NCBI RefSeq assembly: GCF_003334255.1 | Contig: NZ_QOWU01000223.1 | Source: Escherichia coli | GTDB lineage: Bacteria > Pseudomonadota > Gammaproteobacteria > Enterobacterales > Enterobacteriaceae | Length of the DNA stretch: 558 nt | Direction: 5' to 3' (one strand) | Part shown: positions 1-558 of the stretch, piece after piece | Numbering within the stretch: the stretch's first letter is position 1 | How the letters are laid out: every line of letters starts with the position of its first letter | Notes under the pieces: model-generated | Told to the model about the DNA's origin: nothing | The model's database searches: none | What the model saw: the letters and a program-made list of their open reading frames with translations, nothing else | Program-made: the position numbers and the translations under genes

Positions 1-422
1 GCTGAAGCCATCATTAATGCAACATCATCCTCGCTGACATCCACCACATCTGCAGAAGGTGAAATATCGCCCCCTCCCTCCCCACCGAACCGGACGCCTC
101 CGGCAAGTCCTGCCGCTTTCTGCATCAGCATGTCTTCCTCATCCGGCATCTCCGTCTGCGCTTCCTCTCGCCGGGGAGCCAGCAGACTGAAATCCGAGGG
201 ATGCATATCCGGATCGCAAAAAAACAGGCTGAGTACGGCGTACATCAGCCCGGAAAAATGCATATCCAGTTGGGTATCCTGAAAATAATGCGTGCGGTAA
301 AAATGTCGCCAGTCGGCATATTCGGTGGATGTCATCCCGGCAAGCATGGCGCGCCAGTCAGGCCTCCCCATCTCACGCGCCAGTCTGAGGGCAAAATTCA
401 GCTCGCCGTCGAAAACTTTCCC
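1..422 (-). CDS. T: Phage tail assembly protein T-like domain, made as the -1 frame extension of G (G-T fusion by ribosomal slippage); 3' end lies beyond the left edge
   Basis: The minus-strand frame that is -1 relative to G is open from 431 down to position 1 with no stop (about 140 codons after the slip site). Upstream of 431 it is closed by several stops (plus-strand TCA/TTA at 432, 435, 438, 450, 474), so it cannot be translated independently from further upstream. Hand translation from the slip site: GKVFDGELNFALRLAREMGRPDWRAMLAGMTSTEYADWRHFYRTHYFQDTQLDMHFSGLMYAVLSLFFCDPDMHPSDFSLLAPRREEAQTEMPDEEDMLMQKAAGLAGGVRFGGEGGDISPSADVVDVSEDDVALMMAS... This closely parallels the lambda gpT portion of gpGT as I recall it (REMGRPDWRAMLAGM, DMHFSGL, LSLFF-DPDMHP-DFSLL, MQKAAGLAGGVRFG). 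First in-frame ATG is at 371..369; automated annotation may call an independent T CDS from there. Confidence 0.85.
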
Positions 423-558
423 GCAGAAAAATCATCATCAGTAAGCGCGTTATTTTTCGCCACTTCGGTGCTGTCAGTATCCGCATGAACAGCCCCGCTC
501 ATCCCGGACAGACGTAACACCACCTCTTCCGCCCGGGCAATGGCATCAGCCGGCCAGG
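398..558 (-). CDS. G: Phage tail assembly chaperone, lambda gpG-like; 3' portion only, 5' end lies beyond the right edge; stop codon TGA at 400..398
   Basis: Minus-strand frame is open from the right edge to a TGA at 400..398 (plus-strand TCA). Hand translation: ...WPADAIARAEEVVLRLSGMSGAVHADTDSTEVAKNNALTDDDFSAGKFSTAS*. The motifs VVLRLSGM and the C-terminal SAGK-x-ST-x-S closely resemble the C-terminus of lambda gpG as I recall it. The frame ends 6 codons after a GGGAAAG slippery heptamer, as in lambda G. Similarity is from memory, not a search. Confidence 0.85.
   Translation of the reverse strand, partial: WPADAIARAEEVVLRLSGMSGAVHADTDSTEVAKNNALTDDDFSAGKFSTAS
416..422 (-). promoter_or_regulatory. 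Programmed -1 ribosomal frameshift slippery heptamer G GGA AAG (recoding signal for G-T fusion)
   Basis: Plus-strand 416..422 is CTTTCCC, so the minus strand reads GGGAAAG. In the G frame the codons are GCG GGA AAG, giving the X XXY YYZ pattern. After a -1 slip the ribosome reads GGG AAA GTT TTC GAC, continuing into the open T frame. The heptamer identity and its position just before the G stop match the lambda G/T frameshift site. Confidence 0.8.

Follow-up and report, generated by a model that had tools for sequence, protein, structure and literature searches.

A 558-base segment of Escherichia coli DNA and its likely place in a lambda-like tail-assembly module

The lambda G/T pair and its counterpart in the window

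In phage lambda, V and H flank the genes G and T (PMC3296357; PMC5009743), and the slip sequence of the G/GT pair is GGGAAAG (PMC3296357, Table 1). About 96% of lambda ribosomes keep the reading frame and produce gpG; the remainder slip by -1 on GGGAAAG and produce gpGT (PMC3296357; PMC5009743). The resulting gpG:gpGT ratio of about 30:1 is crucial to tail assembly, in which the binding partner of the G parts is the tape-measure protein and that of the T part is the major tail protein (PMC3296357; PMC5009743). The lambda virion contains neither gpG nor gpGT (PMC3296357; PMC5009743).

We analysed a stretch of DNA of 558 bp, called the window throughout, and consider it very likely to be an internal piece of a lambda-like tail-assembly module, that of a lambdoid E. 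coli phage or prophage with a long non-contractile tail, read on the minus strand. On that strand the window holds the 3′ end of G, a frameshift site and most of T. A sequence-only reading of the same 558 bases had placed them in a lambdoid tail module on the minus strand, and such a module was present in every identical copy that we read and in three diverged copies with 79-94% identity.

The 3′ end of G, a lambda-type tail assembly chaperone gene, occupies positions 398 to 558 (minus strand). It comprises the last 52 codons (556-401) and the stop codon TGA (400-398), and bases 557-558 are the end of the codon that precedes these 52. Read from base 556, this minus-strand frame translates to WPADAIARAEEVVLRLSGMSGAVHADTDSTEVAKNNALTDDDFSAGKFSTAS and then reaches the stop at 400-398. 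The complete G protein, taken from the identical copy in phage PhiR5_1 (L001), has 143 aa, of which the window supplies just the C-terminal 52 residues. It scored 161.5 bits on the NCBIfam equivalog model TIGR01674 (phage_lambda_G), which has a cut-off of 74.45. Full-length G also matched phrog_42 and phrog_32165, covering positions 1-141 of the latter, and gpG is its annotation in all six RefSeq matches.

The T reading frame, -1 relative to G, spans positions 422 to 1 (minus strand), between the slip site and the window's left edge, and has no stop there. Upstream of this, the -1 frame has three stops; it opens four codons before GGGAAAG, where it reads GKVFDGELNFALRLAREMGRPDWRAMLAGMTSTEYADW..., goes on to include ...GKVFDGELNFALRLAREMGRPDWRAMLAGM... 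and remains open through base 1. Of the 152 residues in the T portion of G-T, the window encodes 140; it lacks the final 12 codons and the stop, which fall past base 1. From the window alone, the T frame (422-1) scored 185.2 bits on TIGR01715 (phage_lam_T; NCBIfam equivalog, cut-off 77.35), with positions 1-110 of the 111 in the profile aligned to T residues 7-116. The same frame matched positions 137-276 of phrog_32165, a profile of the G-T fusion with 290 positions.

How close is this pair to that of lambda? The two share the gene order V-G-T-H, the flanking genes Z, U, M, L, K, I and J, and an overlap of T with the start of H. The reconstructed G-T fusion is 69% identical to that of lambda over 285 aa, and nucleotide identity across G-T is about 78%. 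Both products are slightly larger here than in lambda, with 143 versus 140 aa for G and 290 versus 279 aa for GT. The regions that differ are linkers: the C-terminal third of G and the acidic stretch of T. The same G/T genes are also carried by Stx-converting lambdoid phages (for example, the Stx2a phages from LC727840 onwards, whose records are unannotated), with 93.7% identity over the full window. The Stx2a phages thus differ from the window by about 6% nucleotide divergence and by 9 nt in length (549 versus 558 nt matched).

A megablast search returned 100% identity over all 558 bases in seven public records: phage PhiR5_1 (PV340545.1) and six E. coli chromosomes (EC2, DETEC-S792, S1-KEN-03-A, S1-KEN-04-A, 99RCEF and JNEC-KY204). 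We read the flanking annotation in PhiR5_1 and in five of the six chromosomes, leaving out S1-KEN-04-A, whose record length and match coordinates equal those of S1-KEN-03-A. Exact identity among these copies continues past the window, for 514 nt towards V and for 70-898 nt towards H. We infer that the flanks of the window's own contig resemble those of the identical copies.

Neighbouring genes and spread among E. coli genomes

In all the identical-copy records that we read, the order on the coding strand is head genes, FI, FII, Z, U, V, G, T, H, M, L, K, I, J. The full colinear lambda-like tail set, Z-U-V-G-T-H-M-L-K-I-J, is therefore present, under lambda gene names in PhiR5_1 and as equivalent products in the RefSeq records. 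The order V-G-T-H, which the sequence-only reading had taken from lambda as its forecast for the unseen flanks, recurs in the identical copies read, in the three diverged copies and in lambda's own record.

To the right of the window, the identical copies carry the stop codon of V (TAA, minus strand) 293 nt past the edge, then a V-G spacer of 21 nt that includes AGGAG, and then the ATG of G, 271 nt past the edge (both minus strand). A major tail protein gene had been expected just beyond the right edge. V does lie upstream, but it is not immediately adjacent, as about 270 nt of G come first. To the left, the expectation that the T frame would stop within a few tens of nucleotides held: its TGA ends 43 nt past the edge (minus strand). 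The ATG of H, preceded by GGAGGTG, is 24 nt past the same edge (minus strand), so that H and T overlap by 20 nt, compared with 8 nt in lambda.

Both flanking genes could be identified by their products. V matched phrog_41, the PHROG major tail protein, with 372.7 bits over profile positions 1-243 of 245, and shares 67% identity with lambda V. There was no NCBIfam family match for V, and its identity is set by PHROG and by the direct comparison with lambda V. H scored 265 bits on TIGR01541, above the curated cut-off, and 960 bits on the PHROG tape-measure profile, and it is 78% identical to lambda H. The tape-measure gene that was predicted to follow T is thus confirmed by profile.

Two of the H genes depart from the others. 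In PhiR5_1, H (L001 20582-23154, corresponding to PV340545.1 36232-38804) is split into CDSs of 777 aa and 79 aa by a 1-nt deletion at alignment column 2234, beside runs of G. No identical H was found in the 5,426 genomes; the best matches there share 99.4% identity, have one extra nucleotide and carry an intact annotation. Either the record contains a sequencing error at this point or the mutation is private to this phage. In EC2, H (L002 20582-23104) lacks 51 nt in frame (17 aa) close to its 5′ end, at alignment columns 109-159, relative to the other copies with an identical window. The length of the lambda tail scales with the length of H, and the 17-aa deletion therefore predicts a slightly shorter tail.

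We then searched 5,426 complete E. coli genomes with a 1.8-kb query that reaches from the 3′ end of V into H. The query matched at 8,274 places, and at least 2,334 of the 5,426 genomes contain the G-T-H block, counting a genome when a place covers at least 80% of the query. The number of block copies per E. coli genome has a median of 2 and a maximum of 8. Among 40 records sampled across the results, 39 have a match that starts at query positions 329-331, the first base of G, and runs through T into H; the remaining match is to part of H only. The V allele upstream of the E. coli copies of G-T-H is mostly too divergent for megablast. At three diverged places, with 94%, 80% and 79% identity, a V-type gene lies directly before G and H follows T. 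The V-type protein at these places is 67-74% identical, and the heptamer stands in the same phase in all three.

In the majority of E. coli copies the match sets in at precisely the first base of G, and the V allele upstream of the V-G junction (L001 19709-19730) is a different one. This pattern points to a recurrent mosaic joint in the intergenic spacer between V and G. It suggests that G-T-H may be swapped as a cassette apart from V, although the T domain must bind V. Some matches are plasmid borne, 12 places in the search with the window and 33 with the 1.8-kb query.

Phage, prophage or remnant

The elements that carry the identical window differ in kind. PhiR5_1 is deposited as a complete phage genome of 50,981 bp, with E. 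coli C given as the host. Its genes include int, xis, exo/bet/gam, cI/cro/cII, O/P and Q, along with lysis, head, tail and tail-fibre genes. The deposit with a named host is an indirect hint that particles carrying the segment may be infectious. A search of the literature collection used here found no paper on PhiR5_1, and an att search at the ends of its record gave just 10-12-nt matches, which is the level of chance.

In S1-KEN-03-A, the identical segment is part of a prophage of 47,054 bp that lies inside a DUF72 (yecE-type) gene. At one end, int and xis stand beside the DUF72 gene; at the other end there is a truncated gene fragment and yecD. Between them are a LexA-family repressor, helicase/primase, Q, holin/lysozyme and terminase, on to the tail fibre. 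Since the right end of the EC2 prophage is rearranged, we used S1-KEN-03-A for the att search. Each junction carries a copy of an 11-bp direct repeat, CACGCAGTTAA, at NZ_CP145698.1 4702015 and 4749058 (L014 6016-6026 and L013 35392-35402). The truncated gene fragment starts exactly where the right copy of CACGCAGTTAA lies, and a repeat of 11 bp is weak when taken alone (blastn-short E = 0.12). We regard CACGCAGTTAA as a candidate att core, statistically weak and positionally exact. S1-KEN-03-A is the one copy in which we found both the genes and the putative att sites of an intact prophage, and it is apparently complete. On the phage side of this prophage, the sequence provides a replacement 3′ end for the DUF72 (yecE-type) gene.

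The EC2 prophage has the same left end as that of S1-KEN-03-A. Its tail gene I is annotated as frameshifted (L002 24879-25459), and a DUF1327 gene is partial. The right side (L002 32328-40558) holds a YadA-type adhesin gene and a gene for a 1,335-aa S6-family (SPATE-type) peptidase, then IS3 and a truncated ompW. The yecE fragment and yecD that are seen at the right end in S1-KEN-03-A are not at the right end in EC2. When the left junction was compared with 11.5 kb of the right side of EC2, there was no shared word of 14 nt or longer, and nothing convincing by blastn-short. The arrangement suggests gain of cargo or rearrangement between prophage sites, and the EC2 copy is partly decayed and rearranged, and possibly defective.

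Outside the window, PhiR5_1 and the prophages integrated in yecE (EC2, S1-KEN-03-A, 99RCEF, JNEC-KY204 and DETEC-S792) are mosaic, although the window itself is identical in all of them. The early region of PhiR5_1 (L008 1-15700) has a different integrase from that of the chromosomal elements (L009/L014), with about 72% nucleotide identity at the left end. It carries lambda-type O/P, and between kil and cI it has genes with HipA toxin and HipD antitoxin annotations. The early region of the chromosomal prophages has a module of DEAD-box helicase and primase, and an SPFH-domain gene.

Given this variety, could the window come from a defective, cryptic lambdoid prophage, one that retained V-G-T-H after phage production was lost, so that the module is a decaying remnant? 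Synteny would still hold in such an element. Many lambdoid prophages are defective, and the number of block copies in E. coli genomes, typically two and as many as eight, would fit with this origin. EC2 gives a concrete example, an identical segment in a prophage with a frameshifted I, a partial DUF1327 gene, the 51-nt deletion in H and a rearranged right end. However, the G and T frames of the window are intact and the slip site is in phase, and the same 558 bases are also found in a phage genome deposited as complete and in the apparently complete, att-bounded prophage of S1-KEN-03-A. We therefore consider a cryptic origin unlikely, with perhaps one chance in a handful of being right. The sequence-only reading had held that 558 bases cannot tell an intact prophage from a remnant or a phage genome, and indeed we found the identical segment in all three states. 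Because identical copies occur in both, the segment does not separate an active phage from a decayed prophage. Decay in some copies (gene I and the right end in EC2, the split H in PhiR5_1) means that a functional tail module is not guaranteed for any given copy.

Far less probable is that the G/T pair is an isolated fragment, a leftover of a deletion or a part of some other element, that has no adjoining V and H. All identical copies read, and all three diverged ones, have V and H as the immediate upstream and downstream neighbours of the pair, and 39 of the 40 sampled matches begin where G starts and extend across T into H, with the other covering part of H. An isolated G/T pair, or flanks that lack V and H, was absent from every public record that we examined. 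We also considered a tailocin or another head-less derivative, and dropped this reading: in every copy read, the region directly upstream holds terminase, portal, capsid and head-tail joining genes. Weakest of all is the idea that the plus strand codes and that the minus-strand reading is a coincidence: plus-strand ORFs do exist mechanically at 201-488 (95 aa) and 130-282 (50 aa), but the minus-strand frames score 161-185 bits on curated G/T models and are annotated in every record, so we give it next to no credence. These two ORFs were rejected as candidates, having no PHROG match even at E ≤ 1.

The slip site and the annotation of T

We return to the lambda-like module and to the site that joins its G and T frames. 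The heptamer G GGA AAG, at positions 416 to 422 (minus strand), is the predicted site of a programmed -1 frameshift to G-T, as judged from its phase and conservation. GGGAAAG occurs once on the minus strand of the window, where 0.08 occurrences are expected by chance; at least one copy was present in 14 of 200 shuffles. Lambda has the same GGGAAAG in the same phase, five codons before the stop of G, and the phase and the 5-codon distance are also those of the three diverged copies. The first codon of the T frame past the slip is GTT here and GTG in lambda.

The T frame offers no good start of its own. Its first ATG, GTG or TTG comes 16 codons past the slip, which is 11 residues inside the match to TIGR01715. 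Because these 11 residues of the profile match precede the first ATG, the T domain cannot be made whole from its own start codon. As in other G-T frameshift pairs, then, the heptamer leads into a -1 T frame, T appears on sequence evidence to have no independent initiation of the whole ORF, and the chaperone pair stands between the major tail and tape-measure genes, in the identical copies read and in the three diverged ones. We infer a lambda-like frameshift because the heptamer, its phase and its distance to the stop are the same and the T domain lacks a usable start.

If the allele behaves as in lambda, most ribosomes would end at the stop of G and produce the chaperone gpG, and a few per cent would step back one base on the heptamer and produce the fusion gpGT, which would have 290 aa here. 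The G parts would coat the tape-measure protein gpH, encoded directly downstream, and the T part would recruit the major tail protein gpV, encoded directly upstream. Both gpG and gpGT would be absent from the finished virion. For this allele, the occurrence of the frameshift, its efficiency and the binding partners are all taken from lambda and are to be read as presumed.

A hairpin is predicted past the slip site, at window positions 348-381 (minus strand), 35-74 nt 3′ of the heptamer, where the inverted repeat GGCGCGTGAG...CTGGCGCGCC can pair. The sequence of this GC-rich hairpin, from 381 to 348 on the minus strand, is GGCGCGUGAGAUGGGGAGGCCUGACUGGCGCGCC. It is kept in lambda and in all the diverged copies, with changes that are one-sided only (G-C to G-U). 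Its stability is not significantly above that of shuffled sequences: the fold of window positions 422-316 had z = -2.1, a stability reached by 5 of 200 shuffles, and for the corresponding lambda region z was -1.4. Folding an alignment of five sequences gave no compensatory pairs and a covariation term of +0.24, in sequences that are very similar to each other and protein coding. The efficiency of the G-T frameshift is generally held to depend on the heptamer alone. That the hairpin might act as an unrecognised modulator of this efficiency is a doubtful proposal, based on the predicted fold, and we hold it at long odds.

The public records treat T differently. They give it as a separate CDS of 137 aa (L001 20188-20601, with equivalent CDSs in L002-L006), with no frameshift join to G. 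In the PhiR5_1 and RefSeq records, this CDS starts at an internal ATG at window positions 369 to 371 (minus strand; L001 20188 corresponds to window position 371). Annotators start T at this internal ATG because GTT replaces the GTG that follows the slip in lambda. The ATG at 369-371 is probably an annotation convention and not a real start of T. Because T is annotated separately from the internal ATG and without a join, the 290-aa G-T fusion is missing from public annotations.

What the window holds, a member of the lambda G/T family inside an ordinary lambdoid tail module, belongs to known biology, and beyond correct annotation the importance of the finding is small. The flanks, which were unseen, had been predicted correctly from 558 bases, and the window is now placed securely in the lambdoid tail-assembly module. 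The separate T CDS of the public records is to be read as a frameshifted G-T fusion.
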